Below, one piece after another: positions 27,121 through 46,500 of a stretch of 64,000 bases of DNA. Under the pieces are notes generated by a model. That model had not been told where the DNA came from. It searched no databases and saw only the letters and a program-made list of their open reading frames with translations. The first letter of the stretch is position 1. Each line of letters opens with the position of its first letter. The position numbers and the translations under genes were made by a program. The stretch is taken from the IMG/VR virus record IMGVR_UViG_3300013104_000002, positions 1-64,000 of that record; one strand, given 5' to 3'. The stretch comes from a virus.

Positions 27121-30100
27121 TTAGTTTTCTTCTTCGTCAACCAGCAATGGGTAAACGCTGAGATAGTCTAGCGTTTTATTGTCCTCCAAGTTAAAAAAAC
27201 GATATGCGTTTAAACTTCCTGACACATCTCTAAACAAAGAATTATAATCCTTGGCTAGCGGAACATATTTGTAAAAATATCGCTCTCTTTCAGTTAAGCC
27301 ACTGTAACGTCCTTTCTGAACGATTTCAGAAGATCCTATGTCCCCTATATCAAACGCCATATCAATAGTGTTAAGCCCGACCACCGCATCATTAAGTGTT
27401 CCGTAAATATTACTTGGTACGCCTATCGAACTTGACATCACCTCTGAGGTCGTTCTCATTAAAAATAGATTAGCCACTTGAAAAGCATAACTATCTTTAT
27501 CATCGTCATCAAGTTCTTTAAGTCCCATAACAAGAAGTCCAATCATAAGATTTAAAACTGTCATTTCTGTAACACCTCTTATTAGGTTTTTTCTTGTGGT
27601 TGTATTCCCGTTCTCCCAGCGTTCTTTTATATATTTTACTATATCCTTTGTTTTACCGCTTTTAACATCATCTACAATACTAGACACTACTCTCCACGGT
27701 GTTCTCCAGCTTCCTTCTTCAATGTTTCCACTTAAAGTATTTAATTGCCTTCCTTTGAATTTAGATTGCGCCGCCAAGTATAACCAGCTTCGGTGAGTGG
27801 TTAGAAAGGAGAATATTGCATTTCTGGCTGCCATAGAACGATCAGATTCAGAAATTTGTTGATCAACTGCTTGGATAGCAAGTTTAACTCTTGAAGCAAT
27901 TCCTGCATCTTTACCATCCATAAATTCTTTAGCTTCTTCAGCTGTCATTCCTGTATTTAGCTCGTCTGCAATTTTTTGATAGTCGTAAGTTACAACTCCT
28001 GATTCAGATACTTTGGAAACATCTGTTATGTCTTTATATTGTTTCCATATTTCTCTTATTTCTTTATCCGATTTTCCTTTGTTATTTTCTTTAAAATCTC
28101 TGTATTGAATGAGTTTGCCATCTACAAATCTATGATCACACAAAACTGCTAAACCTGTTCTTGGATTTATTGGGAAGTTAAACATAGTGTGAGCTACATA
28201 TGCAGAACGACCTAAACCTCTCACTGCTTTACCGTAATTAGAATTGTTGTATTTTTCTTCTGTTTCAAACCATCCCCATTTAGCTCCCATAGAATTTAAC
28301 CATGAAGTAGTCTGAAAATCCATTACTTCTCTTGTAGAATCTCCTGCTGTATCTTTAAATATCTTATTGGCGCGATCTAAAGCCGATCTATCCACTCTCT
28401 CTCCAACAATTTTTTCTATTCTTAACTGTACTGATCCTGATAAAGCAGATGTGATTGGAATAGTTAAATTATAAGCTAAATTTCTAAATCTAATAAATGC
28501 ACCAAAAGATTTTAAAACACTTCCCCAATTTCCTTTTACACCAAATAACTGGAATTCTTTACTAAATGTCTCCTTCACTCCGTAGAAATTATGTTTCATA
28601 GAATCTTCAAACATCTTATAAACATTACTTGATTCAACAGCTAAGTTATTTTCAAATTGAGATCCTAATAAAGCTTTTTTAATAGCAAGCATATCCCCAA
28701 TATTAGCTTTACGTGCTTTATATAAATTAGATTCTTTATTCATCCAGATATAAGACTCTAGCAACTCATCTGTAGCTTCTCCTTGATTTAATTTTCTAAG
28801 TCCAAGTTTGGGTATAGAAGATATTACCATGTTTTTAGCTGTATTTCCTGCCGAATCTTGTCCTAAACTTGCATCGTCTTCTCGGAAATTTATAAGCTCA
28901 TCTACCAATCCTCTAACTCCTTGTTTTTTATTTACTATGTCTTCCCATTTTCTAAGTTTTCCTTTTTCTTTTTGAGGAAGTAAATATATATTATGGGAGT
29001 TAGTCATTCCATAATTTTCTACAGTTTGTTTTTGTAATTTTACAAATTCTTGTCTGGCATCAAATTTATCCTGTATTTGTTTAGGAGTACCTTCTTTAGT
29101 GGTTTCTTCTCCTGTTTCGAATAGTTGAACTAAATCTATATTATATTCTTTTAAGAATTCTTTATTGACATATTTGTTTAATTTACCTTCCTTGTAAAGT
29201 TGATCTACAGATTTATTTTTAACATCCTCTAAAGTCGTATCTACCTCAAATGTTCTAAATAAAGGAGTTCCTTGTAATTTGGCTTGATTGAAGTGCGGAT
29301 TTTTGTTATTAGCTTCATTAGCTTGTTGAAAAGCATAATTAGGAGAAATATTTAAATACTCATACTGCCCTTCTTGATAATTTTTAAGGAAATCTGATGC
29401 ACTTATTTTATTATTTCTTAAATCTGACAAAGCTATATCTACACCTGTTGGTTGTGATTTTCTAAAATAAGGTAAGAGTCTTGTATAACTATATTGTAAT
29501 AAATCATTAGTCATAGAAGCAAAAAGCTGTTCCTCTGACATTTCGTTATAATCTGATTCAGATAAATTAAAAACTTTTTTATATTCTTTAGGTATTCTGT
29601 TTATAGCCCCTCTTGAAAAATCTTTCACAAAACTTCTTAGTTCCAACACTTTCTTTTTATTCTTTTGTGTTGAGTGTTCAATTATTTCAGAAAATATTTT
29701 ATTTATGTTATCTACTTCATCTTCGTTCAGATACTCTTTATTGTAGTCTAACTGAAAAACTAAATGCTTGTCTGCCATATAATTTACAAAAGACTCATTA
29801 GGTATAGTTTCGGATATATTGTCTTCTTCTATTTCTTCTGAGCGTGAAACTAAATTACTAGCTTGGGAATAGTAATCCTCTAAATCTTGGGCGTACTGTT
29901 TTACCATCCCTACTTCAGTTGATTTTTCCATATTCTCATAGCTAACTTCGGAAGGATTATTCATCACTTTATTAGCCTGTAAAATGGTATTCATTTTTTT
30001 GGTAGTGGATGCGATTTTATCTATTAAATTTTGTATTTTCCAATCATTATCTCCTCCAAGTTCATCATTTAATTTATCTAATATAGAAGGTCTGTTTAAT

Positions 30101-33100
30101 CTATCGTAATACTCGTTTGTATATCCTACGTAAGCATTTAGCATGAGAAAGTCATAAGCATCCGAAGGAGTCATTTCACTTAAAGTATCTACAAAAGTTT
30201 GAGAAAACTCTTTTTCTTCGTTATTTTCTTTTATTTCAGCAAGTCTTAAATTATCTAACTTAGTTAATTCAAATGAAAGAATAGAAGGATTATCTGTAGT
30301 TCCTGGCTTTAAAGATACAAAGATATTATTACTAATTTTTACAATATCTTGCTCTGGGCTTAGTTCATATTCAGCTTCTGTTCTGAGTTCGATACCTTCT
30401 CTTAAGTCTCCCTCTATGTTAAAAACTGATTTATCATATACTCTCTCCTTTTTACGTTGCTCATAATCGTACTTCATTTCTGTCGTAAAAGTGGGTACGC
30501 CATTCACTATCTCTGCATTTTGCATTAGATTTGCATAAAACAAACTACTGTTTCTTTCGTAATTTTGTGTAACCAAAGAGTAATTTTCAAGTCTTTTTCT
30601 ACGCTCTCTTGTTTCTTCAGGACTTAAAGCACTTAGAGTAAAATTATCTAATTGCCAATCTTGTAGTTTTTTATTGAAATCGGTTTTTTGAGCTGTTGTT
30701 AGACCACTTAGTTTTTTCTTTTCAAATTCCTCCTGTGTTAAATCTTCTCCTGAAATTTCTTTATAAATATTGTATCTGGCTTCTGCTAATGCATCTTCCC
30801 TAAGTTTATCATTAAATCGGTTTTCAATAAATCCGTCTTTTGCGAATTCTTTTACTTTATTTATCCAGCCTAAGTCTTGTAGTTTCTTAACGAAAGGTAA
30901 AGTCTGCTCCAAGGTAGCTTGTCTTTTCTCGTGATCTACTTTAGAAGATACATGAGCAGCAGCATTTAAATATAAATTAGAAGAATGCATTAGAGTACCA
31001 AAATTCATAAAAAAGAAATTAGTCTCAGCCTGTAAGTTATCAACTTTGTTTTGTATAAAAGCCCTTTTATCTTGTGATAAATCTAACCTTCTTACTAGTA
31101 AATCGACTAAATGATTTTTATAATTGTTTTCTGCTGTACTAACCTGACCTTTTAGTTTTTCTATGGAATCAGATACTTTATTTACTTCTTCTAAAATTCT
31201 GTTCTCTGCTTTGGAACGTAATTTTTTATTTTCCAAAGTGTGTTTTATAGAAGGTAGTATTTGATTATCAAATTGACTTATTAAAGTATTGTAAACTGCA
31301 TCTTCTTCGGCAGAAAAATGGTAATTTCCTTGCTCATTTCTTTTAACTGCCCTCTGTAAGTAAGTTAATTGTTTTTGGGCAACATTTGTTAAATGGGAAA
31401 AGGTTGCAGCTAATTCTGATTGAGCTACTTTCTCTAGCTTACCTTTTTCAACTACATCTGTTGTTTTTGCTATTTGCTCAAATTGCTCTCCGACTCTTCC
31501 TAAAGACTCTTCCGCTTGAGTTAATTGTTGTCTTTGAGCATAATCATTTCTGGCAATCTCATATGTTTGTGATCTCAAGAGATTAAGAGTTTCTTCCGCC
31601 TGTCTTTGTATTTGCACTAAATCGTTGCTTAAATTATTGCTGGAAGAATACAGTCTAAACTTAGTTCCAAAATTTTGATTAGGATTTAAATCATCTACTA
31701 ATTCGCCTGATAATAGCTTTACATAAATATCTTTATTCAAATTGTCTATTTGAGTTTGAGCATCTGAATTAAAATAAGTATTTAATCTTTGAAAAAAAGT
31801 GTCTAAAAACTCTATTATTTTACTGAATATAGACTGTTCTGTTAAAGTAGCGTCTTGTGATAATTGAAAATTATTAGCTACAGCATTTGCCATGACTTTA
31901 CCTAATATTTCTCTTCTTACCATTTCTTCTAATTTATTACCAGAGTATTCTTTACTATAAACTTCATAATAATGTTGAGAATGCTCTTTCCATTCAGGAG
32001 TAATATGTATATTTCTTCTCACTCCTTCTGTGGTTGTAGGATCTAAACTAGCTTCAATTAAGTGCATAGTTTCTTCAATAAGGTCTTGTCTGGTTATATT
32101 ACCGTCCTTGAAAGCCATTATTTTATTTACAACATCCATTAAAGCAGATGATGTTGCAGGTACGCCTTCATTTTTTAACTTGTTGTTATTAATATATTCT
32201 TCTATTGAAGTTATTTTTACTCCTAATTTGTTTAGAAGGCTTTTTATTGATCTTACTAACTCATCTTCTGTTTTTATTTCAGTTTCTTCGTCGATTCTTT
32301 TTTTAAGATTGTTTGGTAATTTTCCTTTTTCAAATTCTCTTTCTACTTCTATTTCTATAGCTTGTTCTTCTCCGAATTTATTTTTTAACTGTTCGAAGCT
32401 TAGTTCAGATATTTCATTCTGGTCTACTTTTTCAGACCCTATTATCCTGGTATTCAAATTATTTTCCAAAATAAAATCTCCTGTAGCTAATCTTACTACC
32501 GAGCTTTGTCCTAGTTGTTTAACTAATATATCTTCTGCAATATTTGAAGATAATTGTCGTGCTGTATCTGTTTGTCCGTTTACGTTTGTTATAACATCTC
32601 CATTTACATCTAAAGTTCTGGTTCCATCTAAGACACCATTTTTAATTAAATGATTCAATATTCCTGGATAGGTGTCAATACTAGTATCAGAGTTAACCTG
32701 TCCCATTACTTTATCACCTACTTTTAGAGAGATCATTCCAGTGGTACTATTTTGTAGTGCTTGTTGATAGGTTGAGAAACTTTCTCCTGAAAGTGTTTCA
32801 AATGTTAAATTATTTTCTTTTGAATAAGTTTTCTTCCAGTTTTTAAAACTTTCTATATCTTCTTCTGTTCCTAAAATATGGATTTGATTCACGTTTGGAA
32901 CCACTACTTCATCATATGCCCTTGTTTTGTAAGATACTACTACCCCATCAAAACCTTCTTGGTTTAATTCTTCTTTTGATTTCTGAGAATTCATATCAGG
33001 ATTCTCAACATTTACAATAACTGGTATAACTCTGCCTACTTGGTTTCCTGTAGACATATCAATACTATATCCATACGCTCTGTCAAAAATTTCTGTAAAA

Positions 33101-33498
33101 TAAAATCCTTGCCCAAAATCTCCTATGGTCTTATTTTTATCAGATTCTGTTCCAATTTGTTGCTCGTCAAAATTATTGAAATCTCTTTTAGTACCGTGAT
33201 AAAGTACGCTATTTACTTTGGTATTCGGAAAAATAGATTTAAGATATTGAGCATATTCTACCTCTGTCCCTATTTGGGATAGGTTTGCATTTTCTTTAAA
33301 TATATAATCTATATTATTAATAGCAGAATCTTCAATATTTGATTTTATGGAAAAGGTGTTTTGATAAACTTGTATAGACTGTTCTAATGTTAATATAGGT
33401 ACATTAAAAATTTGTTGAAATAATCGAGATGTCTCTCCATTTTCGTCTTTTACTTTATTTATTTTTCCGTTTTGTGCTTTTTCTATTTTACAAGCCAT
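27121..33498 (-). CDS. large polyvalent ejection/cargo protein with N-terminal ADP-ribosyltransferase (ART-PolyVal-like) and degenerate zincin domains
   Basis: LYHGT...GQGFYFT...GFDGV...DEVVV..NQIH; IEETMH...REILGK; C-terminal hydrophobic segments. Confidence 0.75.
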   Translation of the reverse strand: MACKIEKAQNGKINKVKDENGETSRLFQQIFNVPILTLEQSIQVYQNTFSIKSNIEDSAINNIDYIFKENANLSQIGTEVEYAQYLKSIFPNTKVNSVLYHGTKRDFNNFDEQQIGTESDKNKTIGDFGQGFYFTEIFDRAYGYSIDMSTGNQVGRVIPVIVNVENPDMNSQKSKEELNQEGFDGVVVSYKTRAYDEVVVPNVNQIHILGTEEDIESFKNWKKTYSKENNLTFETLSGESFSTYQQALQNSTTGMISLKVGDKVMGQVNSDTSIDTYPGILNHLIKNGVLDGTRTLDVNGDVITNVNGQTDTARQLSSNIAEDILVKQLGQSSVVRLATGDFILENNLNTRIIGSEKVDQNEISELSFEQLKNKFGEEQAIEIEVEREFEKGKLPNNLKKRIDEETEIKTEDELVRSIKSLLNKLGVKITSIEEYINNNKLKNEGVPATSSALMDVVNKIMAFKDGNITRQDLIEETMHLIEASLDPTTTEGVRRNIHITPEWKEHSQHYYEVYSKEYSGNKLEEMVRREILGKVMANAVANNFQLSQDATLTEQSIFSKIIEFLDTFFQRLNTYFNSDAQTQIDNLNKDIYVKLLSGELVDDLNPNQNFGTKFRLYSSSNNLSNDLVQIQRQAEETLNLLRSQTYEIARNDYAQRQQLTQAEESLGRVGEQFEQIAKTTDVVEKGKLEKVAQSELAATFSHLTNVAQKQLTYLQRAVKRNEQGNYHFSAEEDAVYNTLISQFDNQILPSIKHTLENKKLRSKAENRILEEVNKVSDSIEKLKGQVSTAENNYKNHLVDLLVRRLDLSQDKRAFIQNKVDNLQAETNFFFMNFGTLMHSSNLYLNAAAHVSSKVDHEKRQATLEQTLPFVKKLQDLGWINKVKEFAKDGFIENRFNDKLREDALAEARYNIYKEISGEDLTQEEFEKKKLSGLTTAQKTDFNKKLQDWQLDNFTLSALSPEETRERRKRLENYSLVTQNYERNSSLFYANLMQNAEIVNGVPTFTTEMKYDYEQRKKERVYDKSVFNIEGDLREGIELRTEAEYELSPEQDIVKISNNIFVSLKPGTTDNPSILSFELTKLDNLRLAEIKENNEEKEFSQTFVDTLSEMTPSDAYDFLMLNAYVGYTNEYYDRLNRPSILDKLNDELGGDNDWKIQNLIDKIASTTKKMNTILQANKVMNNPSEVSYENMEKSTEVGMVKQYAQDLEDYYSQASNLVSRSEEIEEDNISETIPNESFVNYMADKHLVFQLDYNKEYLNEDEVDNINKIFSEIIEHSTQKNKKKVLELRSFVKDFSRGAINRIPKEYKKVFNLSESDYNEMSEEQLFASMTNDLLQYSYTRLLPYFRKSQPTGVDIALSDLRNNKISASDFLKNYQEGQYEYLNISPNYAFQQANEANNKNPHFNQAKLQGTPLFRTFEVDTTLEDVKNKSVDQLYKEGKLNKYVNKEFLKEYNIDLVQLFETGEETTKEGTPKQIQDKFDARQEFVKLQKQTVENYGMTNSHNIYLLPQKEKGKLRKWEDIVNKKQGVRGLVDELINFREDDASLGQDSAGNTAKNMVISSIPKLGLRKLNQGEATDELLESYIWMNKESNLYKARKANIGDMLAIKKALLGSQFENNLAVESSNVYKMFEDSMKHNFYGVKETFSKEFQLFGVKGNWGSVLKSFGAFIRFRNLAYNLTIPITSALSGSVQLRIEKIVGERVDRSALDRANKIFKDTAGDSTREVMDFQTTSWLNSMGAKWGWFETEEKYNNSNYGKAVRGLGRSAYVAHTMFNFPINPRTGLAVLCDHRFVDGKLIQYRDFKENNKGKSDKEIREIWKQYKDITDVSKVSESGVVTYDYQKIADELNTGMTAEEAKEFMDGKDAGIASRVKLAIQAVDQQISESDRSMAARNAIFSFLTTHRSWLYLAAQSKFKGRQLNTLSGNIEEGSWRTPWRVVSSIVDDVKSGKTKDIVKYIKERWENGNTTTRKNLIRGVTEMTVLNLMIGLLVMGLKELDDDDKDSYAFQVANLFLMRTTSEVMSSSIGVPSNIYGTLNDAVVGLNTIDMAFDIGDIGSSEIVQKGRYSGLTERERYFYKYVPLAKDYNSLFRDVSGSLNAYRFFNLEDNKTLDYLSVYPLLVDEEEN

Positions 33499-33520
33499 TG
33501 TGTATTTTTTGATTTTAAAT

Positions 33521-33554
33521 TGAAAAAAGTCTGACTATATTTCAAATCAGACTT
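33521..33554 (-). terminator. intrinsic terminator overlapping the start site of a promoter
   Basis: minus strand AAGTCTGA...TCAGACTT followed by T tract. Confidence 0.65.
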
Positions 33555-33586
33555 CAAAAGTAATACTATTATTTTAATTTTGCAAA
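33555..33586 (-). promoter_or_regulatory. Bacteroidota primary-sigma promoter for the 2125 aa gene
   Basis: TTTG, 20 nt spacer, TACTTTTG. Confidence 0.7.
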
Positions 33587-33590
33587 TTTA

Positions 33591-35795
33591 TTATAAACAA
33601 TCAAAGCTATCTCCTATTTCAGATGATTTCCATTGTTTTTTAATATTTGTATATTCTTTTTGCTGTTGTAAATTTGTTTGTAAATTAATTATTTGTTCTA
33701 CGGGTTGTAATGGTAAGGTATTGTTATACAGTAAATTCAAGTTTTTCTGTATTTTTGTATAGATACTTGTACTGCCTTCTTTTCCTACTAATTCAAAAAG
33801 CTCGTCCTCATTATTAATAAATTCATTTATGCCATTTTTTACTACTGTAGTGTTTGAATTTAATTTAACTACATCACCTAATTCAACAGGAATTTTTGAG
33901 AAGTTATTTACCGCCCAGATTCTGTTATTAAATTTATTTGTCAGCATCTGAGGATTATCGTTCATAAGGTTTTCCATTTGTTTAGATATAACACTATATT
34001 CTTGCAAAGGTTGTGTTAATTTAGTTTCATCAATTATGTGAGCTTCTATTTCAGCCATAGATAAAGGATCGCTATAAATTTGTTCTATGCCCTTTTCTGT
34101 TATTTTGAATTTATTATATAAACCATTATTAGGATTTTTAATTTTTTCAATATTAAAATCGGCTATAAAGTCATTAGTTAAATAATCTAAGCTATATGTT
34201 AATGCTATCGGAGGAAATGTCTGTTCCTTAATTACAGGGTTTGTGTTGTAATTAAAATAATCTTTATATGCTTGTAACTCAGTTATATCGTTGGATAAAT
34301 TAAAAGATTCTTTCATTTCCTGAAAATCTACCTTCTCTATTCTGTGGTAAACATTTGCTACCTCCGTTTGTAGGAGATTCATTTCATCAAATAATTGTTG
34401 TTCACTCTTAGTTGTTTCCATGTACACTAAGTCCCTATCTTTGTTCTCTATTTTGGTAACTCTTTCTCTTTGTTTTACAGGAATATTAAATATTTCTCTA
34501 TACTTGTCAGAAAATATCTGAGTATTTATTTCTGAAGGGTTTTCTATGAATAGTTTTAAGCTTGGCAACAGGTCTTTTGTAAATCCTTGGATATTTATAC
34601 CATACCTTAATAACCAATTTGAAAGTTTTTGCTCTACTTTAGTAGTATCTACAATTTCAGGTGCATTAAGTAGTGTATCCACCGCTTCAAATATTCTAGA
34701 ATCATCTACTATTTTAATTGAGTTTGGGTATATAACTTCTTCAACTATAGGTGTACCATTGTCATAAATGGATGGAATCCTTTTAAACTGTGACAAATAC
34801 TCTTCTGTTATAGTTCTATCTTTTATTTCTGATAGGTCTGTTTTTTCTACGCCTCCATACCGCTCTACTATATCTTGTTTTATAATGTAAGGATTTTCAT
34901 TTTTTAGTTTTCCATATATATTTAAATCGTTTAATTTATATATTGCAGGTAAAACAGTTGTATTATATATTTTTGGTGTTCTTTTTAATTTTTCAATGCT
35001 TTCTTTCACTTTACCTAAGGCATTTATGTCAGATAATATTAAATCTGTTTCATATTTTGAATACAAAGATTTTAGCGTATCCTTTGTTGGAGAAAACAGT
35101 CCGTTCTTGTAGAATGCTTTAGTTAATTTATCTGCTAAATCATCTGAGTCTTCAATGTCTGGAAACTCTGCCATCATTATTCTTGTTTCTTGTTGATCTA
35201 CAAAGTTTAAGGGCTGTGTGTTCTCATTTATAGAAGTGGCATATTCCAAGACATTTTCCGCTAATATTTCTCCATTTTCATCAAAAGAGTTTAAAGGCTT
35301 GGCATAAATAATCTTTTTAGTTTTATCTGTAACGCCTAATTCAGAAAAATAGTTCCAAATATTATCTGCTGATTCTGTACGGATTTGATCACTATGAAGA
35401 TTTTTGTTTTCGGAAATCATTTGCCTGGCTACATAACTATAGATAGCTTTTCCATATTCTTCTTCGTTTACAAAAGCGGATTTTATTTTATATCCTTGTT
35501 TGTATGAAGTTAACTGTATTTTACCTTTTACAGATCCATTTTCTATAAGTTGAAAAGTTCTATTTTTAATAGAACCTGTCTCTTTAAAATTAAGATTTGC
35601 GGGTATTTCAGGAAATTTGTTTTTATAGTTATATATTAATTCAGACTGTACATCCCTAATAAAATTAGGAGTATAAGCAAGCACAAATAAATCCTGCGCT
35701 TGCGATTTACCTACTTTTTGTTCTAAATCATTATATAATTTACTTTTTTCGCCGTTAGGGGCAAAATATTCACCGTCATTTATTTGGCACGCCAT
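33591..35795 (-). CDS. ejection/cargo protein with possible N-terminal GNAT-like domain
   Basis: IKSAFVNEEEYGKAIY...LHSD...ESADNIW; N-terminus similar to the 2125 aa protein; Cys only at positions 3 and 733. Confidence 0.6.
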   Translation of the reverse strand: MACQINDGEYFAPNGEKSKLYNDLEQKVGKSQAQDLFVLAYTPNFIRDVQSELIYNYKNKFPEIPANLNFKETGSIKNRTFQLIENGSVKGKIQLTSYKQGYKIKSAFVNEEEYGKAIYSYVARQMISENKNLHSDQIRTESADNIWNYFSELGVTDKTKKIIYAKPLNSFDENGEILAENVLEYATSINENTQPLNFVDQQETRIMMAEFPDIEDSDDLADKLTKAFYKNGLFSPTKDTLKSLYSKYETDLILSDINALGKVKESIEKLKRTPKIYNTTVLPAIYKLNDLNIYGKLKNENPYIIKQDIVERYGGVEKTDLSEIKDRTITEEYLSQFKRIPSIYDNGTPIVEEVIYPNSIKIVDDSRIFEAVDTLLNAPEIVDTTKVEQKLSNWLLRYGINIQGFTKDLLPSLKLFIENPSEINTQIFSDKYREIFNIPVKQRERVTKIENKDRDLVYMETTKSEQQLFDEMNLLQTEVANVYHRIEKVDFQEMKESFNLSNDITELQAYKDYFNYNTNPVIKEQTFPPIALTYSLDYLTNDFIADFNIEKIKNPNNGLYNKFKITEKGIEQIYSDPLSMAEIEAHIIDETKLTQPLQEYSVISKQMENLMNDNPQMLTNKFNNRIWAVNNFSKIPVELGDVVKLNSNTTVVKNGINEFINNEDELFELVGKEGSTSIYTKIQKNLNLLYNNTLPLQPVEQIINLQTNLQQQKEYTNIKKQWKSSEIGDSFDCL

Positions 35796-38700
35796 TAGTT
35801 ACAATTTAAGTTTCTTTCTGTTTCTTTATTCTTTTGTGTTTTAATCTGACTTTCGTAGAATTGAAGTTTCTTTAACTCGTCTCTAAGATTAGTCAACCTC
35901 TCTCTTCCTATTATATCAACTGCTCCTCCTCTTACGGATTTTAGCTTACCATCCTCTGTAAAAAATACTTTTTTAATGAAATTTACATCTTTTCTATTCA
36001 TTATATCAATACCTTTATTTTCCACCACATTTTCATCAAAAGCCTCTATTAGTTTATTTCTATCAGGTATTTCAATAGAAGTATTAACTGTTCTCTCAAT
36101 AGCTCTTAAATTATCAACTATTTTTTGACGTAGATTTATAGCATCTGCTTCTGTATCTTCTAGTTTTCCTAGTGTTAAGGTAGAGTAATCAACCGTAATC
36201 TTTGGAGATGAGATCACTTCATCTTCTAAATCTACTTTTATAGTAGCATCGGAAATTAAATTACTTTTATTATAATTAACATCTGCTATCTCATCTGCGG
36301 TTCTAAATGTTTTGTAGTTTTGTAATTCTCCTCTAATTTTATCCTGCTCTTCTTGTGATAGATTTGTAACTCTTGTATTCAGACCTAATGATATCATAAG
36401 GTTATTAGTCAACTTAACAGCTTCTATAGGAGTTTCGACTGAAGATAGTATATCATCAAATAATGCTTCTTTACTATCCTCGGTTTTTACCATTGTTATA
36501 GGGAAAGCAAATTGATGTTTTCCTTTTTGTAATACTACTACAGGTATTTTTAACTCAGGGCTTGATTTAACCAAGTTAGTTACATATAGTTTAGAAATAT
36601 TTTCCGTATTTAACTTTTTATCTGATAAAACAAAATCTTCACCTTTTATATATCCTTGAGTGATTACAGAATTTAATCCTCTTTCAGTTATAGGTAATTC
36701 TAATGGTTTTAAATTTTCATCTAATTGAAAGTTAGGAGTACCAAGAAAAATCTCTTTCACGGCTACATCTGCTTCTAAATCTATTTTATTAGGTAAAGTA
36801 GCTAAAGCTTGTTCTGTTTGTAACACCTCTATAAATTTATCAGCATATTTTTTTCTTAAATATATGAAATTGTCATCCATAACACTGTCATACAAGGCTT
36901 TTAAAGTAGAATTGTTTTTATTAAATTCTCTACTTGTAATTTCTAGAGTATTTTGTATTCTTTCTTTAAGTTCTTCTGATATTTCTCCATTTTTTTCAAT
37001 ATCTGATAAAGATTCGTAAATTAAATCCTGATTCCAATTAGTTTTTAAATCTACAAATAAATTAAGGTTATCTCTTGGTTCAACATCGTACAAATAATCC
37101 GAAATTGTATTGGTATCAAACTCTGAAACTTTTTTTCTTGTAGTCCCATCGTCTAATCTTTCGTATAAATCAGCATATGACCATTTTCCAGAATTTGAAT
37201 CAAAATAATAAAGATTTATAATGTCTTTTACATTGTTGTAATCTTCTAAAGACATAACTATGTTTCCCCTCTTACCTATAGTAATTTTTGTATTACCAAC
37301 AGTAAAAATAGTGCCTGGTATTTTAATATTTTTATCCAATAAGTTTCTGGTTAGATCCTGAGATTTGTTTAACTTACCATCTTTATTAACTGTTTGAACC
37401 GACGCTATAGATACATTAGGTAACAGCTTATCTATAATTGTTTTAGGATTGATATGGACAAAATGAATATCGTTATCTATTATTTTAACTACAGCATTTC
37501 CTGATATGTTTTGAAGAATATCTTGTCTTTCAGTGGAATGTGCATCTTTTTGTTCAGCTGTTTCCTGAGTTAATAGGTCATTATCAATTTCTGTTACTGT
37601 TTCATTTCTATCTAAAACTGTTTCTAATTGTGAAAGTAACTCCACCAAATCTGCAATAGTCATACCTCTCACGGGAAGTGACTGAGCCATGAACCATCTT
37701 TGCATTCTAGGCTGTAAAGTTTGAAATTCTTGTGTTTCTTTTTCAGTAAATGTATTTTGTTTATTATAAAGAGTTTGATATCTTTCCACTTCTTCTTTAG
37801 AAGGTTTCCCTTTAATCATTTCATCTACGTCTTGGGTAAGTAGTGGATAGTCTTTTTTAAAAGCTTGATTTATCTCTTCTCTTAATCTTTCTGCTTCGGA
37901 AATTGGTTTAACTTCCTCTACATCTCTTGTAAGATCAGGTTTATTAGGATTTTGTAAAAGTAAGTTATTAATTTCTTGGGTTTTATCTGAATATATCTCT
38001 TGCTCTCTAGTGGTTAGTAAATCCTTTATTTTAACTTTTTTAGCAATACTAGATATAATTTTTGGAGATACTGCACCTGTTTCTAAGAATGTAGTATAAT
38101 CTTCATTTGATATGATATCTTCTGTTAAAGATTGTTCTGCTGACCTGGCGGTGCTATTTACATAATTGTCGTAACTCTCTTTTAAAAACTTATTTGTAAA
38201 ATCATTTGTAGGCTCACCAAATTTATCAAAAATTTTGCCTAATAATCCTCCTGCATTTTTAAATTTAACAGCAAAATCTCCGTTAATAATAGAATCAATA
38301 GAATTTTGAAAACTAAAAAAACTTTCTTTAGCTTTTACATATTGTCTTTTTAAATCTAGGAGATCATAATAAATTTCGTGATTAACTCCTTGATAAGATT
38401 TAATTTCGTCTTCTATCCTTTGAAGTTTTTGATCGATATTTGATAAATCCTCTCCAGTAATAAATTCTGTATTTAAGTCGTAATTTAAATCTGATGACTG
38501 GATACCTCTTCTTCTTTTACTTTCTTGGCTGACTTGTTGAGCTAAAAGCTCTCTTTCATTTTTTAAATCTGTTAGGGTTTCATTTGCTTCAGTAAATTTC
38601 TCTTGAACAGATTGCAGTCTTGTCCCTTTATTCTCATCAGAGGATAGTTGAAGTTTTTGTAGCTCTTTTGATAATTGTTTTATCTGCTCTTCATTTGAAA

Positions 38701-40843
38701 CAATTTGTTCATTTAATCTTCTAACCTGTTGCTGTTTTGCTTTGCCCATTTTTTGTAGTTGGGTTTGCACTTGTAAAGCTTTTATACTATCTTGACCAAT
38801 TACTTCACCCATATCCACAAGTAAACTGTCCATCATCTTATTGGCTTTTTGACCACTGACAATAGAATACGTTAAAGCGTCTTTTAAGTGTTGGGTATCT
38901 ATATCCTGACCTAGTATTTTACTTTCACCTAGAACAGCATCTGCAAAATCAGAGGCTTTGTCATATGAAGTTAATAAGTTTTGATATCCTTTTAAAACCT
39001 CATTTTTATAAGTTTGGGGATCATTAATTCCTTGCTCGGAAAAGGCTTCTTGTGGTACAGCATCTAGAGCTGTCTTATACTTCGAGAGTAGGTCTTTAGT
39101 ATCTTCTCCTATAGATTTTCTAAACTGGATTTCAGCAATTAGTTGATCTTGTTGAGCCAATGCTGCACCTACATCATCACCTGTATCTATAGCTTGCTTT
39201 TGTCTTTCTACAGCGTTTTGAGTTCGTGCGTTAAACATTATTTTTTTAACTATCGAATCTGTAGCTAGCGCACTTTGGTCTCCAAATTGATTTAATCCTT
39301 TGGCTACGTAATCTTCTTGATACTGCTGTTCTTTATTAAATTCCTGCACTTCTTGGAATTTTCCTCCTCCAATAACCAGAGATGAACCTATTCCTATTAT
39401 AGCTCCAATACCAATTTCTTTCCAGCCTTCTTTACTTCCATATTGATCCGCAAAAGCCTTATAAGTAGCGTCAGATAAAGAAAGAGTTTGATTATTATAT
39501 TTTGGATTATAAGTTGAAGATATCCAATTTTCTGCTGTTTTTGTTGTAACTCCCTGTAATCCCTCTTCCCATAAACCTTCTGTTGCTAATGGTTTTAATG
39601 CAGCATATGTATATTGGGCTATTTTTTGTTTACCTGTAGCTTTTAAACCTTTATATGCTACCTCTCCTGCCTCACCAACAGTTTTTTCTACGCCTATTCC
39701 AAACAAAGACTTATTCATAGATTTAGCTAGTCCTTTTACAGGGCTTTCTATATTAAATAAACTTCCAAACATTGCGTAGTTTGATGGTATTAAAATAGCC
39801 ATATTAGTTGCAAATACAACATTCGCAGAATTCTCTAAGTTTTCATTGAATTGCTCTATTTCTTCCGCGTTAGGGGTTCTTCCATTTAATTTTTCAAAAT
39901 CTCTATAGAAGTTTTCAGTTTGTTCTCTTTTATAGTGAAGAGCTTCTATTCCCGCCTCGTTACCAGACGATGTAGCTAAGAATCTGGCTGTATTTAAACC
40001 TTTAGCTGTATTGGCGAAAAAATTGGCTGTAGTGGTCTTTAGGCTGGCTGTTGTGAAAAGCTTATCCATTCCACTAGCGAGAAACTTTTTAGAATTTGCC
40101 AATCCAACTGCTGCTTCTTCAGCTCCTAGAGCTACTTTACCCCAACGTAATTTATTTCCTAATTTTGCTCCTTGTAATCCCCATTTTGCAGAATTAGCTA
40201 TACCTCCTGTTGCATATCCCCAAATAGCTTCACTAACAATAGTGCCTAAAGTGAATGCTAATCCCCCTGCAACATCCTTAGCCCAGAAATTTGTTGTTAA
40301 TGCACTCTCAAAAAAATTGTCATCCATCTCATCCTGAGATACATAATTAGGAAGTTGATAATTTAACTTATCATTCCAATCTGCTAAGGTATTGCTGAAT
40401 TTATTATCAAAGACTGCATTCCAACTTCCCTGTGCTATCCCTTGAGTGGCTCCATACACAAACCCTACAGTATTACCTGCAATTGTTGTTAATAAATTTG
40501 CACCAGCTTTTGTAAGACCATTGGTTAGTTGATCAAAAGAAGATTGATTTTGTGCTGCATATTCAGCATTATCTCTTCCTACTTCATAGGTAGGGTATTT
40601 ACTTATATACTCATTTCCTACTAAATTATATCCTTCTTCTATTGGTACTTGATATTCTAAAGAAGGTTTTTGTACTTCTGATTGTATTCCTGTTCCTCCA
40701 AACGTAGGAGTTTTTAACGAGTCATATAAAGAAGTTGTTCCTTGTTCTTTAGCTATAGCTTTTTGTTGAAGATTTTGTTGCAACTGTTGTATAGGTTGCA
40801 TTTCGTTATTTACTATATTGGTGATATTTAATTCTTCCTCCAT
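35795..40843 (-). CDS. large ejection/cargo protein with Gly/Ala-rich hydrophobic segments and coiled coil
   Basis: 1682 aa; GLAFTLGTIVSEAIWG, EGLWEEGLQ, IGIGAIIGIGSSLVIGGG; single Cys at 1681. Confidence 0.7.
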   Translation of the reverse strand: MEEELNITNIVNNEMQPIQQLQQNLQQKAIAKEQGTTSLYDSLKTPTFGGTGIQSEVQKPSLEYQVPIEEGYNLVGNEYISKYPTYEVGRDNAEYAAQNQSSFDQLTNGLTKAGANLLTTIAGNTVGFVYGATQGIAQGSWNAVFDNKFSNTLADWNDKLNYQLPNYVSQDEMDDNFFESALTTNFWAKDVAGGLAFTLGTIVSEAIWGYATGGIANSAKWGLQGAKLGNKLRWGKVALGAEEAAVGLANSKKFLASGMDKLFTTASLKTTTANFFANTAKGLNTARFLATSSGNEAGIEALHYKREQTENFYRDFEKLNGRTPNAEEIEQFNENLENSANVVFATNMAILIPSNYAMFGSLFNIESPVKGLAKSMNKSLFGIGVEKTVGEAGEVAYKGLKATGKQKIAQYTYAALKPLATEGLWEEGLQGVTTKTAENWISSTYNPKYNNQTLSLSDATYKAFADQYGSKEGWKEIGIGAIIGIGSSLVIGGGKFQEVQEFNKEQQYQEDYVAKGLNQFGDQSALATDSIVKKIMFNARTQNAVERQKQAIDTGDDVGAALAQQDQLIAEIQFRKSIGEDTKDLLSKYKTALDAVPQEAFSEQGINDPQTYKNEVLKGYQNLLTSYDKASDFADAVLGESKILGQDIDTQHLKDALTYSIVSGQKANKMMDSLLVDMGEVIGQDSIKALQVQTQLQKMGKAKQQQVRRLNEQIVSNEEQIKQLSKELQKLQLSSDENKGTRLQSVQEKFTEANETLTDLKNERELLAQQVSQESKRRRGIQSSDLNYDLNTEFITGEDLSNIDQKLQRIEDEIKSYQGVNHEIYYDLLDLKRQYVKAKESFFSFQNSIDSIINGDFAVKFKNAGGLLGKIFDKFGEPTNDFTNKFLKESYDNYVNSTARSAEQSLTEDIISNEDYTTFLETGAVSPKIISSIAKKVKIKDLLTTREQEIYSDKTQEINNLLLQNPNKPDLTRDVEEVKPISEAERLREEINQAFKKDYPLLTQDVDEMIKGKPSKEEVERYQTLYNKQNTFTEKETQEFQTLQPRMQRWFMAQSLPVRGMTIADLVELLSQLETVLDRNETVTEIDNDLLTQETAEQKDAHSTERQDILQNISGNAVVKIIDNDIHFVHINPKTIIDKLLPNVSIASVQTVNKDGKLNKSQDLTRNLLDKNIKIPGTIFTVGNTKITIGKRGNIVMSLEDYNNVKDIINLYYFDSNSGKWSYADLYERLDDGTTRKKVSEFDTNTISDYLYDVEPRDNLNLFVDLKTNWNQDLIYESLSDIEKNGEISEELKERIQNTLEITSREFNKNNSTLKALYDSVMDDNFIYLRKKYADKFIEVLQTEQALATLPNKIDLEADVAVKEIFLGTPNFQLDENLKPLELPITERGLNSVITQGYIKGEDFVLSDKKLNTENISKLYVTNLVKSSPELKIPVVVLQKGKHQFAFPITMVKTEDSKEALFDDILSSVETPIEAVKLTNNLMISLGLNTRVTNLSQEEQDKIRGELQNYKTFRTADEIADVNYNKSNLISDATIKVDLEDEVISSPKITVDYSTLTLGKLEDTEADAINLRQKIVDNLRAIERTVNTSIEIPDRNKLIEAFDENVVENKGIDIMNRKDVNFIKKVFFTEDGKLKSVRGGAVDIIGRERLTNLRDELKKLQFYESQIKTQKNKETERNLNCN

Positions 40844-43537
40844 TTAAAGCTTATTTATTTCTTCGTCTATATTGTTTTTATTTACAAGGGCAGAGTATAG
40901 TAATTGATTAAGTACATATACTTGAGGGTACATTTCTATTGAATACTTCAAATCATATGAAAGCTTATCTGTACCTAAAAATGAATCTGATATTCTTTTA
41001 TTATTATTGTCTAGAACTTCTATTGCAAATTCATTTTTAAAACCAGAATTCGGATTAGGTTTTACAACTGTTTTTATTTGATATGCGTCTAAATTATTTA
41101 ACGCAGTATTTTTGTATATAGTTGCTTTTTCTTTTGATACTCCTGCTGCAACTAATCTATTTACAATCTCTTCAGACGCAAGCTCTTTTGTGGCTAATCT
41201 CCCTGGTTGAAAGTTGACAACCCCAAATGCTTTTTTAGCTGAAGCGGGGATGTAATTTTCTACTTTATAAGCCATAGTTTGTTGACCTGTTCTACTCGTA
41301 GAGTATGATGGAATTGAAACTTTTATTGGTGGTATTTTAGTATCTTTACTAGCTTGAATATAATTTTGATTTGATGTTGCGTCTAAATTAATGTAATTTG
41401 ATAGTTGATTATAAAGAGAACTAACTTTATTGACTTTATAGCTTAATGGATAGGATTTTGCATTTTTTCCTGTTCCTTCTGATTTTAATTGCTCTATAAA
41501 TACATCTTCACCTCTTTTTCGTATAGTTACATTTTGTTTAGGATCAAAATCAGACCCGCCTGTAACTTCATTACTTACAACGCTTTTTAAAACATTTTCC
41601 CTCACATCATCATCTATAATGTTAAATTGATTATATGCACTCATCATAACACCTTTAGAAGTCTTGCTTTGAATTGTTTTTTCTATCTCAGAACTAGCAT
41701 CTTTTTTTAAATCACTTACATTATATGCTCCTTTACTTATTTCTGATAAAATTTCTGAAAATTCTAATAGTTTTTCAGGGGAGCTTTGTAAAGTACTTTT
41801 TAGATTAGCCCAACCTCCATTACGTTTTACATACTCCTCTGCTTGAGCAGCTTCTTTCCAATCTTTGTCTGATGAAATTGGTCTTCCTACCATTGCATCG
41901 TAATAGTCAATTAGTTTTCCTGTCTTTTTACCTTCTATCATAGTTCTTAAAGAGTTGATATATGTATCAGGATTTTCATTAAACACTTTAGGTAGTGATT
42001 CTCTTCTTACAGTTAGTAACTCCTGTGATTTCTGTCTTTTTACTTCATTATTTTTATACATTTCAGGAGTTGTCTGTCCTGTTTTTTTAAATGATTCATA
42101 AACCGTGTTTGCTAGTGAATTATTTAAATTATTTGATGGATTTTTAAACCTGAATTGGTTTCCTACTACTTCAACACCTCTTAAATTTAATTCTGCCTTT
42201 ACAGTATTTACATCTTCATCTGTAGCTGTTTGCATGAAGTTACTAGCATCTTTTAGTATATTATTGTAAGCTCTATTATGCTCTTTAACTAATGTATCTT
42301 GTCCTGCATTTTCTGCCGAAATAGTTTCTGCTAATACGCTTTCCATTGGAGTGCTTGATATAACACTATTTCCTCCTACAGGATTTCCACTAGCATCTAC
42401 TCCTGCTTTTTTGAACTCCTTAAATTGATCTAATTCAAATTTCTTAGTATCTAAAGCTAATTTTTGTCTGTCAATGTCTAGTTTTTGATTTTCAAAATAA
42501 ACATCGTCCTTTTTATATTCTGTGCTCCATTCTGCTTGCGCTAATTGAGAAATACCGTTTAAGTAATTTTGTCTATCTAATGTAGAGGCTATTGTAGTGG
42601 TATCTAACTTAGATGAATCCATTGCTTTAAATGTATTAATAGATTCTGTTAATTCTGCTGACTTTCTTTTAGCCTCTTGCCTTTGATTATCAGAGTAAGA
42701 TGAATTATTTATTATAGCATCATTTACTTGCTTTTGGTTATTTAAATAATCTATTTTTTGAGCTTTATAGCTGTTATATTGAGCTTCTATTATAGGTCGA
42801 TTAGATTCTATGTTTATTCCTCCACTTTTTTGCCAAGCGTTTATCTTCATTTGCTGTACTTGTGGGGCAGTCATGGTAGACCCTAAGTACTGACTAATTT
42901 CCCAATCCTCTAACCCGTCTATTTCTTTACGTACTATCTGACCAGGGTTATTTGGATCGGGCATTTCCATAAACCTTTTACCTTTTATGTCTTTAATAGT
43001 TTTTAAAGCCTTTAAGTTTTCTTCTGTTACATCTACATACGGCTGATATTGCATAGCTCCTAATTTCTTAGTTTTTCCTTGCATATAATCGTAATAGCCT
43101 CCAGAATACATTCCATATTGATAATTAGCTGAGTTAGCTAATTCAGGATTCTTCTTTAGTATATTTTGATATTCTGTATCGTATGCTTGTTTGTTCTGGG
43201 TAGATGTTATAGCATCTTGGACAATCGGATCATCTACAATGCTAGTAATAGCTGTTAAAATACTATCCCGTGTACTGTTATAAGCAAGATTACCATTCTT
43301 CATTTTATAAGAATCAATAGCCGAAGTGACTTCCTTCATACGAGCCGAAATATACTCCTGATCTAATGGACGTAATGCTTGTAATTTAGAACTATAAGCT
43401 CCTAAAGTTTGTTGAATCAGAGCAGAATTTGCATCAAATTTATTTTGTAATGTACTAAGGGTTTTATCCACTACGTTAATGTCAACATTGCTTTGAGGCT
43501 GTTGTATTCTATATTCTTGACTTAAGTAATTACTCAT
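40844..43537 (-). CDS. putative ejection/cargo protein
   Basis: 897 aa, Q/N/S-rich, no Cys, lies in cargo block. Confidence 0.6.
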   Translation of the reverse strand: MSNYLSQEYRIQQPQSNVDINVVDKTLSTLQNKFDANSALIQQTLGAYSSKLQALRPLDQEYISARMKEVTSAIDSYKMKNGNLAYNSTRDSILTAITSIVDDPIVQDAITSTQNKQAYDTEYQNILKKNPELANSANYQYGMYSGGYYDYMQGKTKKLGAMQYQPYVDVTEENLKALKTIKDIKGKRFMEMPDPNNPGQIVRKEIDGLEDWEISQYLGSTMTAPQVQQMKINAWQKSGGINIESNRPIIEAQYNSYKAQKIDYLNNQKQVNDAIINNSSYSDNQRQEAKRKSAELTESINTFKAMDSSKLDTTTIASTLDRQNYLNGISQLAQAEWSTEYKKDDVYFENQKLDIDRQKLALDTKKFELDQFKEFKKAGVDASGNPVGGNSVISSTPMESVLAETISAENAGQDTLVKEHNRAYNNILKDASNFMQTATDEDVNTVKAELNLRGVEVVGNQFRFKNPSNNLNNSLANTVYESFKKTGQTTPEMYKNNEVKRQKSQELLTVRRESLPKVFNENPDTYINSLRTMIEGKKTGKLIDYYDAMVGRPISSDKDWKEAAQAEEYVKRNGGWANLKSTLQSSPEKLLEFSEILSEISKGAYNVSDLKKDASSEIEKTIQSKTSKGVMMSAYNQFNIIDDDVRENVLKSVVSNEVTGGSDFDPKQNVTIRKRGEDVFIEQLKSEGTGKNAKSYPLSYKVNKVSSLYNQLSNYINLDATSNQNYIQASKDTKIPPIKVSIPSYSTSRTGQQTMAYKVENYIPASAKKAFGVVNFQPGRLATKELASEEIVNRLVAAGVSKEKATIYKNTALNNLDAYQIKTVVKPNPNSGFKNEFAIEVLDNNNKRISDSFLGTDKLSYDLKYSIEMYPQVYVLNQLLYSALVNKNNIDEEINKL

Positions 43538-43595: not shown

Positions 43596-46500
43596 TTATA
43601 TTATTTTTGTTCCTTGTAATCTACTTTTTGCAATTTGTGATTTCTTATAAGCGTCAATTTGCTCTGGAGTCATAGATAAATAAGCATTTTCGTTTAAACT
43701 TGGTAAAGCTAGATTTGTTTTCGGAGTGTTTATATACTGTAATCCTACTCCTGGTACGTATTGAAAGTTTTCATTTTGACTATTAATCATATTAATATTT
43801 TCAATATCTTTATAATTCTGCCTATTCTGCAAATTTTGTTCGTTATAGTACGAACGCCAATTATTCTCATAATTATTAAGACCTCCTAACACTTGCTGCT
43901 CATATTGCTGATTAAACTGAGAATTTGTTAAGTCTTCTTTTGAACGTTGCCCCAGATTATATTGATCAATTTGGGCTTGATTTTGTGCATTAAAACTTTC
44001 TATTTTGGATATTGCGTCATTAGAAGCCATTTGAGAAGAAGCTAATCCTTGTGAAAGTAGGGCTTCTTGTGCTTGAGGTGGTAATCCAGATGCTTGTACT
44101 CTTGCTACGTCAGTTCCTCTTTGTCTTTCCTGCTCGGCTAAATACGGCTCAACAGTCTGTTTGGTAGGATCTAACCTACCAAGAGTTATTTGCTCTTTAT
44201 ATAATGGATCAAGTGCTGACGGTGCTAAACGTAAATCATCAGGAAGAAGTGGTAAAACATTTTTTATAATGTTTCGTTGTTCTACAACAGGTTTACCATC
44301 AACTACTACTTTTTCTTCTACTTTAATTTCATCTCCATTTGCCTTTTTAAAATCATAAAGCGGTCTTGTTGAAGAGAATGCACCAAACTTCCCATCAAAT
44401 TGCTGAACTCCTCTTCCAGAGAAACCTACCTGATTTATAATGTTATTAGTTTCTGTCTTAGATATTCCTGCTTCTTCTGCTCTCTTTCTTAATTCTTTAT
44501 TATAAGCATTTTGAAATTTTAAAATCTCTGGTTGTTGCCCTTCTTTTTTAACTGCATCTCTGAAAGCTTGTTTTTTAGCTTCTGTGTCAAAATACCATTT
44601 ATGTAGGTTAATCGTATCTTCTACATTTCTCATTTGTGCACCATATCCTGTCCCTGTAAAAGGTTGGGTTTGCTCTACATTTTGAAGCATGTCTTGGTTT
44701 ACAATAGAATTTCCAGATACGTCGTATCCTGGAATTGTTGGAGTATATCTTGTAGAAAATGAGAATCCTGCTTGTGTTCCTTCCTGAGCCATAGGTACAT
44801 CCCCTTCTGCTGGTTGTTGTAATTGTTGCATTACTCCTTGCACCATTTGAGTGGCTGTATTTTGATCAATACCTTGAGAAACTAATTCTTTTAATACTTC
44901 TTCTGGTGATGATCCTTGTGATAATGCCTGAGCTATGAAATTCATTATTTGCTCTTGATCTGATGAGGTAGGTTGTTCAGGAGTGCCTCCCTCTTGCATA
45001 GCTAAAAGTTCTTGTGCACGTTCTTCTGAAATTCCATATTTTGCTGCAATATTTGATATCTCCCCCCCTTGTTGATAATTTTTTCCTTGTTGAGCGACTT
45101 CTTTACCGTTTTCGTCAAATATTTGAGTACCATCTCCTTTTTTTGGAATAGACTCTTGTATAGAAAATAAATCATCAAACACCATAGATTGAGGATTACT
45201 TAACATGTCAAGTTTTGCTTTACTTGTTTCTATTTCTTTAGATAGAGCTATTTCATTAAGTCTTCTCGTAGTTTCATCTTCTATGTTTGAATTTTTACCG
45301 AATTTTTCTATAAGCCCTGATAAAAAATCTGTCTCTTTTTGAATGCCTAGTTTTTTGTCATATTGTTTTTGAGCATCAGAAAAAGTAGCACCTTTTTTTA
45401 ATTTTAAGTCGTATCTTTCTTTAAGCTCTTTTATATTTTTAGCTGGTATTTTAGTATAATCCGATAGTACTTTATCTCCACCATCTAATCTTACATCTAC
45501 ACCCTCTCCAATCTTACCATTTTTAATGTGTTTTTCACCAACAACTTCCTGCACATTCCCAGTATCTGCTTTTTTAACAAACTCTCCTGATTCTACATTA
45601 TAATTAGGCATGACTTGATCAGTCAAGTATTTTCCTGTAAGAACGTCTGAATTTTTTATTTCACCACCTTGTTGCATAGCGGTAAAAGGATTATAATAAG
45701 AATTAATATAGTTATTATATTCTGGGTTACTTTTTAAAACATTCTCTATATCTAATACGTTTTTACCATATAACGGATTCTTTTTCATATCTATTCCTTC
45801 CTCTGGAATAGGAACTCCATATATTTTTTGCATATTAAAGCCGTGTTCGTTTTTTTCTGTGTTTGAAAAAACTTTACCCCGACCATTGTAAACTTGGATC
45901 TTATCTTCTTCTTTTTTTAGGTTAAGTCTATTAGCTGTATTCATTTTCTCTTGGTAAGCATCCACAAATCCCTGTGCATCCCCTGCATAGTTTAAAACTC
46001 TGCCTATATTACTGTCAGCCTTTCCCATACCTGTTTCTGCCATAGCAATTGCTGCCAACCTGTCTATATCTTCACGTGACATGCCTCTCCCTTTAGCTAT
46101 TTCTATTACTTCGTTAAAACGCTGTGTAGGATAATTACCTGTTATTAAATCTTTGTTTGGATTAATAGGTTTATTAGTTGTTGCTCTTTTTGTGCGGTTA
46201 TCTTTAATATGTATATTATCAGGCTTATTGAAAGTGTTGAAATCTTTTTTTTGCCCTGCTAAATCGAAATCTAACCAATAAGTACCTCCTTCTTGAGCGT
46301 ATTGATAGTTTATTTTAGGATTATAAATATCATTAAACTGTTCTTTTCTAACTCTGTCACTTTCTTTTCCTGAAGCGTATCCTGTTAGAAAACTTCTTGC
46401 TCCTTTTAATACGGATAACCCTGCTCCTAATCCTCCTTGGAAATTATTACCTGAACCAAATCCTTGACCAGCATAATTTAAACTGCTCTCTAAATCTACA

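Follow-up and report, generated by a model that had tools for sequence, protein, structure and literature searches.

Cysteine placement in proteins A, B and C

We analyzed a window of 64,000 nucleotides (nt) that comprises positions 1 to 64,000 of virus record IMGVR_UViG_3300013104_000002. It covers the first 64 kb of a complete phage genome (146,490 bp, direct terminal repeats) and has a G+C content of ~30%. Three consecutive genes, termed here A, B and C, encode proteins of 1682, 734 and 2125 amino acids (aa) at 35795-40843, 33591-35795 and 27121-33498, respectively. These genes, and all other features given below by window coordinates, are on the minus strand. The only cysteine (Cys) of A is the penultimate residue, Cys1681 (..NLNCN*; codon 35801-35803). 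B has only Cys3 (MACQI..; codon 35787-35789) and the penultimate Cys733 (..FDCL*; codon 33597-33599). C has Cys3 (MACKI..; codon 33490-33492) and one internal Cys, Cys1787 (codon 28138-28140). Four of these five Cys stand at the facing ends of the three proteins. The stop codon of A overlaps the start codon of B (TAATG), and B is separated from C by a 92-nt spacer. Inspection of the spacer by eye revealed a terminator-like hairpin at 33523-33553, with a 7-bp stem (agtctga / tcagact) and a T run after it, so that B and C may belong to separate transcription units.

A, B and C, together with three further virion-type proteins encoded in the same block (811, 1105 and 897 aa), amount to 7,354 aa. 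These six proteins contain five Cys (5/7,354, 0.068%), vs. 1.285% (373/29,025) in the other open reading frames (ORFs) of the 146,490-bp genome. Against ~94 expected from the rest of the genome, a count of five or fewer has a Poisson probability of 6e-34. For at least four of the five to fall within the 12 positions that make up the four facing ends, the chance is 3.5e-11. Neighboring tail-type proteins are Cys-rich (36 Cys in 2143 aa, 10 in 307 aa, 16 in 365 aa and 7 in 224 aa). An earlier note on this DNA, prepared from the sequence alone, had stated that six cargo-type proteins hold only five Cys beside Cys-rich tail proteins, and that four of the five are terminal and follow gene order. 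Our recount gave exactly the same lengths and Cys positions, and both statements were confirmed, the first by the counts and the second by the codon positions. The observation is real and highly non-random.

Conservation of the terminal cysteines

The earlier note had proposed conservation in orthologues as a test of the terminal Cys. Such Cys were found in 31 of 31 homologues of A, 169 of 181 of B and 33 of 35 of C. The phage is crass-related. On the basis of sequence similarity, A is a homologue of the crAss001 cargo protein gp47 (A-family profile, E 7e-25; BLASTP, 2e-21); the profile also matched a 2208-aa protein of csAssE-Sib (E 4e-106). The conserved Cys of A homologues lies in the last three residues and forms an invariant column (C1681) in their alignment. 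None of the 31 has an N-terminal Cys, and 29 have no further Cys (2 internal Cys in 55,639 residues). The last 45 aa of A (35798-35932) form a Lys-rich tail that ends T-E-[KNR]-[NK]-L-[NK]-C and, to judge from its residues, is probably helical.

The B family was collected by word-based and full-profile searches and comprises 181 proteins with a minimum length of 500 aa; lengths run from ~500 to 2,800 aa. Members were scored for a Cys at position 3-8 together with one in the last four residues. Exactly two Cys were present in 163 of the 181, and internal Cys numbered 24 in 176,330 residues (0.014%). Columns C3 and C733 are invariant in the alignment of B homologues, and the flanking residues vary while the terminal Cys stay fixed. 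Most of the 12 members without one terminal Cys are fragment-like; one is a fusion, and one carries a 17-residue extension. A separate case is P0117 (L011:71-8494, 2807 aa): this B-type protein has 10 internal Cys besides the terminal pair and gave Pfam matches to RadC and, faintly, to a ParB-like domain; Cys purging is relaxed in some acquired modules. At locus L007, the gene following the B homologue encodes a YkuD-domain protein in place of C.

B begins with a head module of ~48 aa (35652-35795) in which the Cys precedes a beta-hairpin and helices; its conserved pattern is C-x-I ... N-G-x-x-S-x-L-Y. It ends with a flexible tail (residues ~700-734; 33594-33698) that terminates in [DE]-N-F-[DNS]-C-x. 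The AlphaFold2 (AF2) model of B had a predicted local distance difference test score (pLDDT) of 87, with values <50 at residues 704-719 and 731-734; in this model the tail consists of ~35 disordered residues ending in Cys. Weak Foldseek matches of the B model to GCN5/GNAT proteins (E ~1e-3) suggest a GNAT-like domain near the N-terminus.

C is, by profile comparison, a homologue of crAss001 gp49 (C-family profile, E 5e-49; cr118_1 gp15, E 6e-64). The Cys of C homologues is at position 3-6, and C3 is an invariant column in three alignments. No C-terminal Cys was found among the 35 homologues; most have Cys3 only, and internal Cys numbered 8 in 77,093 residues. Cys1787 of C is not conserved and falls outside the rule described below. 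The N-terminal head module of C (~55 aa; 33334-33498) again consists of the Cys, a beta-hairpin (strands 4-7 and 13-17) and helices, and was modeled by AF2 with pLDDT 74-88 over residues 1-50. Residues 98-181 match the ART-PolyVal domain PF18760 (35.4 bits vs. a cut-off of 31.2). The C-terminus is acidic and lacks Cys. The AF2 model of residues 1-1150 was of low confidence (pLDDT 65; predicted template modeling score 0.33). Sequence and profile searches of solved structures with A, C and their families gave no meaningful match, and no DFDxD RNA-polymerase motif is conserved in A, B, C or their close relatives.

The heads of B and C align with each other (hhalign E 1.1e-4, probability 57%), which defines a module of ~45-55 residues common to the two N-termini: Cys, beta-hairpin and helices. 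The tails of A and B are likewise similar, both ending hydrophobic-polar-Cys with 0-2 residues after it. Common heads and similar tails fit two equivalent tail-to-head junctions.

A domino-like rule across loci

We compared 39 non-redundant loci, a reduced set of the gene neighborhoods around diverse B and C relatives. The loci were retrieved with alignment queries; a locus search with B alone as query found none, and blastn of the region against the phage collection gave no match. All 39 loci showed the same layout in transcription order: a protein with a C-end Cys, zero to two proteins with Cys at both ends, and a protein with an N-end Cys. In each of the 27 complete chains, the number of C-end Cys equaled the number of N-end Cys. 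Four loci have no middle link (L020, L028, L029 and L045), one has two (L030), and in another B is fused to C (L012). In the window, A is thus the first link, B the middle link and C the last. The terminal Cys are near-invariant down to ~23% identity, and internal Cys make up 0.004-0.014%.

This domino rule was kept where genes are inserted between B and C, including genes for HU-like, GIY-YIG and pectate-lyase-like proteins, among others, and an 8-kb island in csAssE-Sib. It was also kept in Steigviridae, where gp47 is inverted relative to the other chain genes. Because the rule survives both insertion and inversion, it is not a by-product of overlapping starts and stops. At the chain-gene junctions of L003-L006 and L013/L016, the insertions include an HU-like gene, ORFs of 151 and 72 aa, a pectate-lyase-like gene accompanied by a 572-aa ORF and a GIY-YIG gene, and the csAssE-Sib island; the junctions look like insertion hot spots.

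A second test proposed in the earlier note concerned fused orthologues, in which the junction Cys should be lost. Locus L012 contains a continuous B-C fusion ORF of 2380 aa (P0175) with a single Cys, Cys3. Its residues 56-636 correspond to B 177-705, and residues 654-2380 correspond to C 281-2125 (29% identity, E = 0). P0175 lacks the B tail and the C head, both junction Cys have been lost together, and the upstream A homologue still ends ..NSDC*. A search of A and C homologues with the B profile revealed no B-C fusion beyond P0175. In fused Crassvirales forms (crAss002 gp33, p-crAssphage gp44 and cr118_1 gp14), terminal Cys are found solely at ends that face a separate partner.

Two other ways of joining the proteins were considered and rejected. 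Split inteins or a related ligation chemistry would find no space for intein halves, since just 0-2 residues separate a Cys from the C-end, or 2-4 from the N-end. Fusion of A, B and C by read-through or frameshifting conflicts with the spacers, inserted genes and inverted orientation at the junctions of relatives.

The rule in named phages

Cellulophaga phage phi4:1, the closest of the cultured relatives phi4:1, phi14:2, crAss001 and DAC15, is ~24-26% identical. The sole Cys of gp038 (1957 aa) is its last residue, gp037 (517 aa) has only Cys4 and Cys516, and gp035 (1914 aa) has only Cys3; all three are annotated in the record as virion proteins detected by tandem mass spectrometry. A gene annotated as 'cysteine dioxygenase' (gp026, L001:34021-34449) lies ~6 kb downstream of this cargo block. 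The phi14:2 homologues are also recorded as virion proteins by mass spectrometry. In that phage, the sole Cys of gp078 is the last residue (..TIC*), the 2180-aa virion RNA polymerase gp077 (DFDID at 1361) has exactly Cys3 and Cys2179, and the sole Cys of gp076 is Cys3. DAC15 and csAssE-Sib obey the rule as well. In crAss001, the sole Cys of gp47 is residue 2339 of 2341 (..RCNS*), gp50 has terminal Cys5 and Cys2404, and the sole Cys of gp49 is Cys5. Polymerase-bearing middle proteins (crAss001 gp50, L017, and relatives in L124-L159) keep 1-3 internal Cys at ~1334-1420 besides the terminal pair. Leptolyngbya phage Lbo-JY46 encodes a 1552-aa protein whose sole Cys is the last residue and, after it, a 2748-aa protein with Cys4 only; the two are homologous to A (E 5.5e-12) and C (E 1.6e-13), respectively.

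Phages with fused proteins gave a similar picture. The p-crAssphage gp44 (4070 aa, MSC..) comes after gp45, which ends ..FSCM*. In cr118_1, the C-terminus of gp14 (4946 aa, with a DFDID polymerase motif) reads ..HCKGE*, and the next protein, gp15, starts MIC... The crAss002 gp33 is annotated as a 4245-aa protein without a C-end Cys and is preceded by gp32, which ends ..FVCS*. The true start of gp33 (L167:8163-20900) probably lies 32 codons downstream of the annotated one, at an internal Met; the protein would then begin MSCTPSNPKL, in keeping with the N-end Cys rule and similar to the start of cr118_1 gp15, MICPNLSNPK.

Neighboring genes in the window

The minus-strand block encodes, in transcription order, the Cys-rich 2143-aa and 307-aa proteins, then the proteins of 811, 424, 1105 and 897 aa, and finally A, B and C. 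The 811-aa virion-type protein (48248-50683) has no Cys and weakly matches a 'tail lysozyme' protein of csAssE-Sib (E 6e-7). The 1105-aa virion-type protein (43596-46913), also without Cys, matches PHROG 36695, 'virion structural protein' (E 3e-42). The 897-aa protein directly upstream of A (40844-43537) has no Cys and lies outside the chain; it gave a weak BLASTP match to a 993-aa structural protein of csAssE-Sib (E 3e-15), and its position just upstream of A is taken by a Cys-free protein in relatives.

The run of Cys-free proteins is broken by the 424-aa ORF (46958-48232), which has 8 Cys; locus L006 has a 361-aa Cys-containing ORF at a similar place. The 307-aa protein (50687-51610) also has a MAC start (MACTCP..), but it contains 10 Cys, adjoins the 2143-aa tail-type protein and does not fit the cargo rule.

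Proposed linkage and alternative explanations

A, B and C are most likely cargo that is packed and injected by the phage. The reading that we consider likely, from the sequence patterns and by analogy, is that the tail of each protein docks on the head of the next and that one disulfide per junction joins the three into a linear thread. The relevant precedent comes from cyanopodophage A4, in whose virion pre-ejectosome cryo-electron microscopy (cryo-EM) revealed the C-terminal helix of gp27 inserted in gp26, with a Cys1715-Cys5 disulfide (PNAS 2025, PMC12002296). The pairing of each C-end Cys with the N-end Cys of the next protein had been suggested in the earlier note; conservation, the domino rule, the P0175 fusion and the A4 case all argue for it.

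In the proposed scheme, Cys able to form wrong bonds would have been purged, with one retained at every end facing the next protein. The A tail would dock on the B head module and the B tail on the C head module, and after the particle had entered an oxidizing environment one intermolecular disulfide would lock each junction. The product would be a linear A-B-C thread of ~4,540 residues. With the Cys so near the ends (0-2 residues away at the C-end, 2-4 at the N-end), such a link would run nearly in line with the backbone and might pass a narrow tail channel in partly unfolded form. The earlier note had added that the chain could be packaged in fixed stoichiometry. The chain could set the order or the coupling of ejection, and host cytoplasmic reductants could then release the three proteins.

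Several points weigh against this scheme. The bond has not been observed in any crass-type phage, this one included, and these Cys are mentioned neither in the crAss001 atlas (PMC10172136) nor in the phi14:2 polymerase preprint. Profiles of A, B and C showed no significant similarity to A-4L proteins (best E 0.057-0.14); the A4 bond is therefore a precedent for A and C rather than a homologous observation. Since the A4 pair is part of a ring, 5+5 around the portal axis (PMC12002296), ordered threading of a chain may be the wrong model, and a static scaffold role, by analogy with that ring, is equally possible. Evr1_Alr (Erv1-type oxidase), Thioredoxin and Glutaredoxin domains are absent from the genome, so the disulfides would have to form spontaneously once the cell has lysed or with the help of the host. 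Two C homologues lack the N-end Cys. In the B homologue of L007 (10001-11761), the usual ..DNFNC motif is followed by 17 more residues and the usual stop is missing. The p-crAssphage gp47 (L170:3588-6161, 857 aa) has a sole, penultimate Cys (..KQSCR*) that is unpaired, and no obvious partner with an N-end Cys was found near it; this Cys would either break the balance rule or connect gp47 to some other partner. A complex prediction for the B tail and C head from two sequences without alignments gave a score of 0.00, which counts neither for nor against binding.

Part of the evidence would fit a different timing just as well. The same tail-head pairs could keep free thiols in the particle and form disulfides only after ejection, in the periplasm by way of host Dsb, thereby locking a trans-envelope ejectosome. 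The domino rule and the fusion result are equally compatible with this course of events, the phage encodes no oxidase of its own, and Cys suppression in N4-like phages has been ascribed to the disulfide-catalyzing periplasm (PMC11445570). However, the A4 bond was seen in the intact virion before ejection (PMC12002296), and crAss001 virions already contain disulfides, in the tail and gp57 (PMC10172136). We regard formation after ejection as unlikely. Another class of explanations, to which we assign a small probability, keeps the Cys functional and changes the partner or the chemistry: B might be cyclized with A bonded to C, like proteins might dimerize with like, the Cys might build a shared metal site, or they might attach the proteins to another virion protein, lipid or DNA. 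Which Cys bonds which cannot be read from sequence alone, and the ~35-residue disordered tail of B could reach far. A three-protein chain has four Cys, the number needed by a Zn or Fe-S site; however, chains with zero or two middle proteins have two or six, and no conserved His, Asp or second Cys accompanies the terminal Cys. Like-with-like dimers leave unexplained the constant lack of an N-end Cys in the first protein and of a C-end Cys in the last. After the B-C fusion, the only partner left for the Cys of A is the N-end Cys of the B part, and in A4 the pairing is C-end to N-end (PMC12002296). Alternative pairings and a metal site are thus disfavored by the two, four or six Cys of the chains, the one-sidedness of the end proteins and the removal of one pair by fusion.

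It might also be argued that the terminal Cys have no function and merely reflect low Cys content combined with conserved start and stop contexts at overlapping junctions, as at TAATG between A and B or in the A/B-type genes of phi4:1, which overlap by 17 nt. We give this explanation almost no credence. The B-C junction has a 92-nt spacer, relatives have whole inserted genes or opposite strands at such junctions, and the Cys are invariant amid varying flanks. The P values given above for depletion and placement contradict it, as does the domino rule.

Significance of the proposed disulfide-linked cargo thread

In crass-type phages, the terminal Cys and the tail and head modules could together serve as a general connector code, which may extend to unrelated podophages such as A4. 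Under such a code, a redox-cleavable thread of any number of cargo proteins, the virion RNA polymerase among them, would have its order specified by the protein ends; it would be needed for co-packaging or sequential ejection and would be cut by host thiols to free the enzymes. We advance this wider proposal tentatively and with somewhat more doubt than belief. It would account for the tolerance of fusion, fission and module insertion, because a thread is equivalent to one polypeptide.

If the proposal is true, the cargo proteins would be held in a set order and coupled by the tether, which would also explain why they fuse and split freely in evolution, and a redox switch would govern the release of the virion RNA polymerase and effectors. 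It would also address the open question of how podophages pack megadalton amounts of protein and eject them through a narrow tail. Crassviruses are the most abundant human gut phages, and their capsid cargo is unresolved by cryo-EM. The rule can also serve as an annotation aid that flags cargo proteins, true start codons (crAss002 gp33) and gene order.

Comparison with known systems

A close parallel to the A-B-C arrangement is found in A4. Its gp27 and gp26 are consecutive large ejection proteins in which a C-end Cys (within 3 residues of the end) faces a Cys at position 3-5, and which are otherwise Cys-free: in the A-4L genome, Cys1715 and Cys5 are the only Cys of gp27 (1717 aa) and gp26 (1114 aa). 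The neighboring ejection protein gp29 is Cys-free, like the upstream proteins of the window. The tail of A may be the counterpart of the C-terminal gp27 helix docked into gp26. However, A4 is a 42-kb T7-like cyanobacterial podophage with one junction and no protein having Cys at both ends, and its bond was reported as a local stabilizer of the 5+5 ring, not as a conserved rule (PMC12002296). An editing method for A4 has been published. Profile searches of PDB did not find entry 9k3a, of which chain 9k3a_A is A4 gp26, and a Foldseek search of PDB with the low-confidence model of C residues 1-1150 gave nothing at E <=0.001, with 9k3a unlisted. The earlier note knew of no description of the linkage; this was wrong, as the A4 bond between gp27 and gp26 had been published (PMC12002296). 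The bond type is thus already on record for one phage. Full-text literature searches found no published description of the conserved rule, of proteins with Cys at both ends or of the fusion behavior.

In order and terminal-Cys rule, the Crassvirales cargo blocks gp47-gp50-gp49 of crAss001 and gp078-gp077-gp076 of phi14:2 are the same as A-B-C. The crAss001 proteins gp45, gp46, gp47, gp49 and gp50 are cargo proteins, present in virions by mass spectrometry and located in the capsid cargo zone (PMC10172136). Both reduced and unreduced samples had been run in that study. The difference lies in the middle link, which in crAss001 and phi14:2 is a DFDxD virion RNA polymerase (phi14:2, PDB 6VR4), whereas here B is a smaller, putatively GNAT-bearing protein; the B profile detected no similarity to crAss001 gp50. 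The DFDxD motif is present in crAss001 gp50, cr118_1 gp14, phi14:2 gp077 and p-crAssphage gp44.

Ejection proteins of Schitoviridae (N4 gp50-52, DEV gp71-73) are giant and strongly Cys-suppressed, like A, B and C, and their Cys suppression has been ascribed to transit through the disulfide-forming periplasm (PMC11445570). These proteins have essentially zero Cys, whereas A, B and C keep a conserved Cys at each facing end. C also resembles the phage polyvalent proteins in carrying an ART-PolyVal effector domain within a giant virion protein. Relatives of B and C have LPD23, ParB, RadC and ART modules between constant ends; for polyvalent proteins, the literature searched contained no account of terminal Cys or of head and tail modules.

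A functional analogy is offered by AB toxins such as diphtheria toxin and the clostridial neurotoxins, in which one interchain disulfide persists through translocation and is reduced in the target cytoplasm, freeing the active part. These toxins are unrelated to the phage proteins, and their two chains arise by nicking of a single precursor, whereas the phage proteins have separate genes. By analogy, the disulfides of an A-B-C chain may work in the same way as that of the AB toxins.

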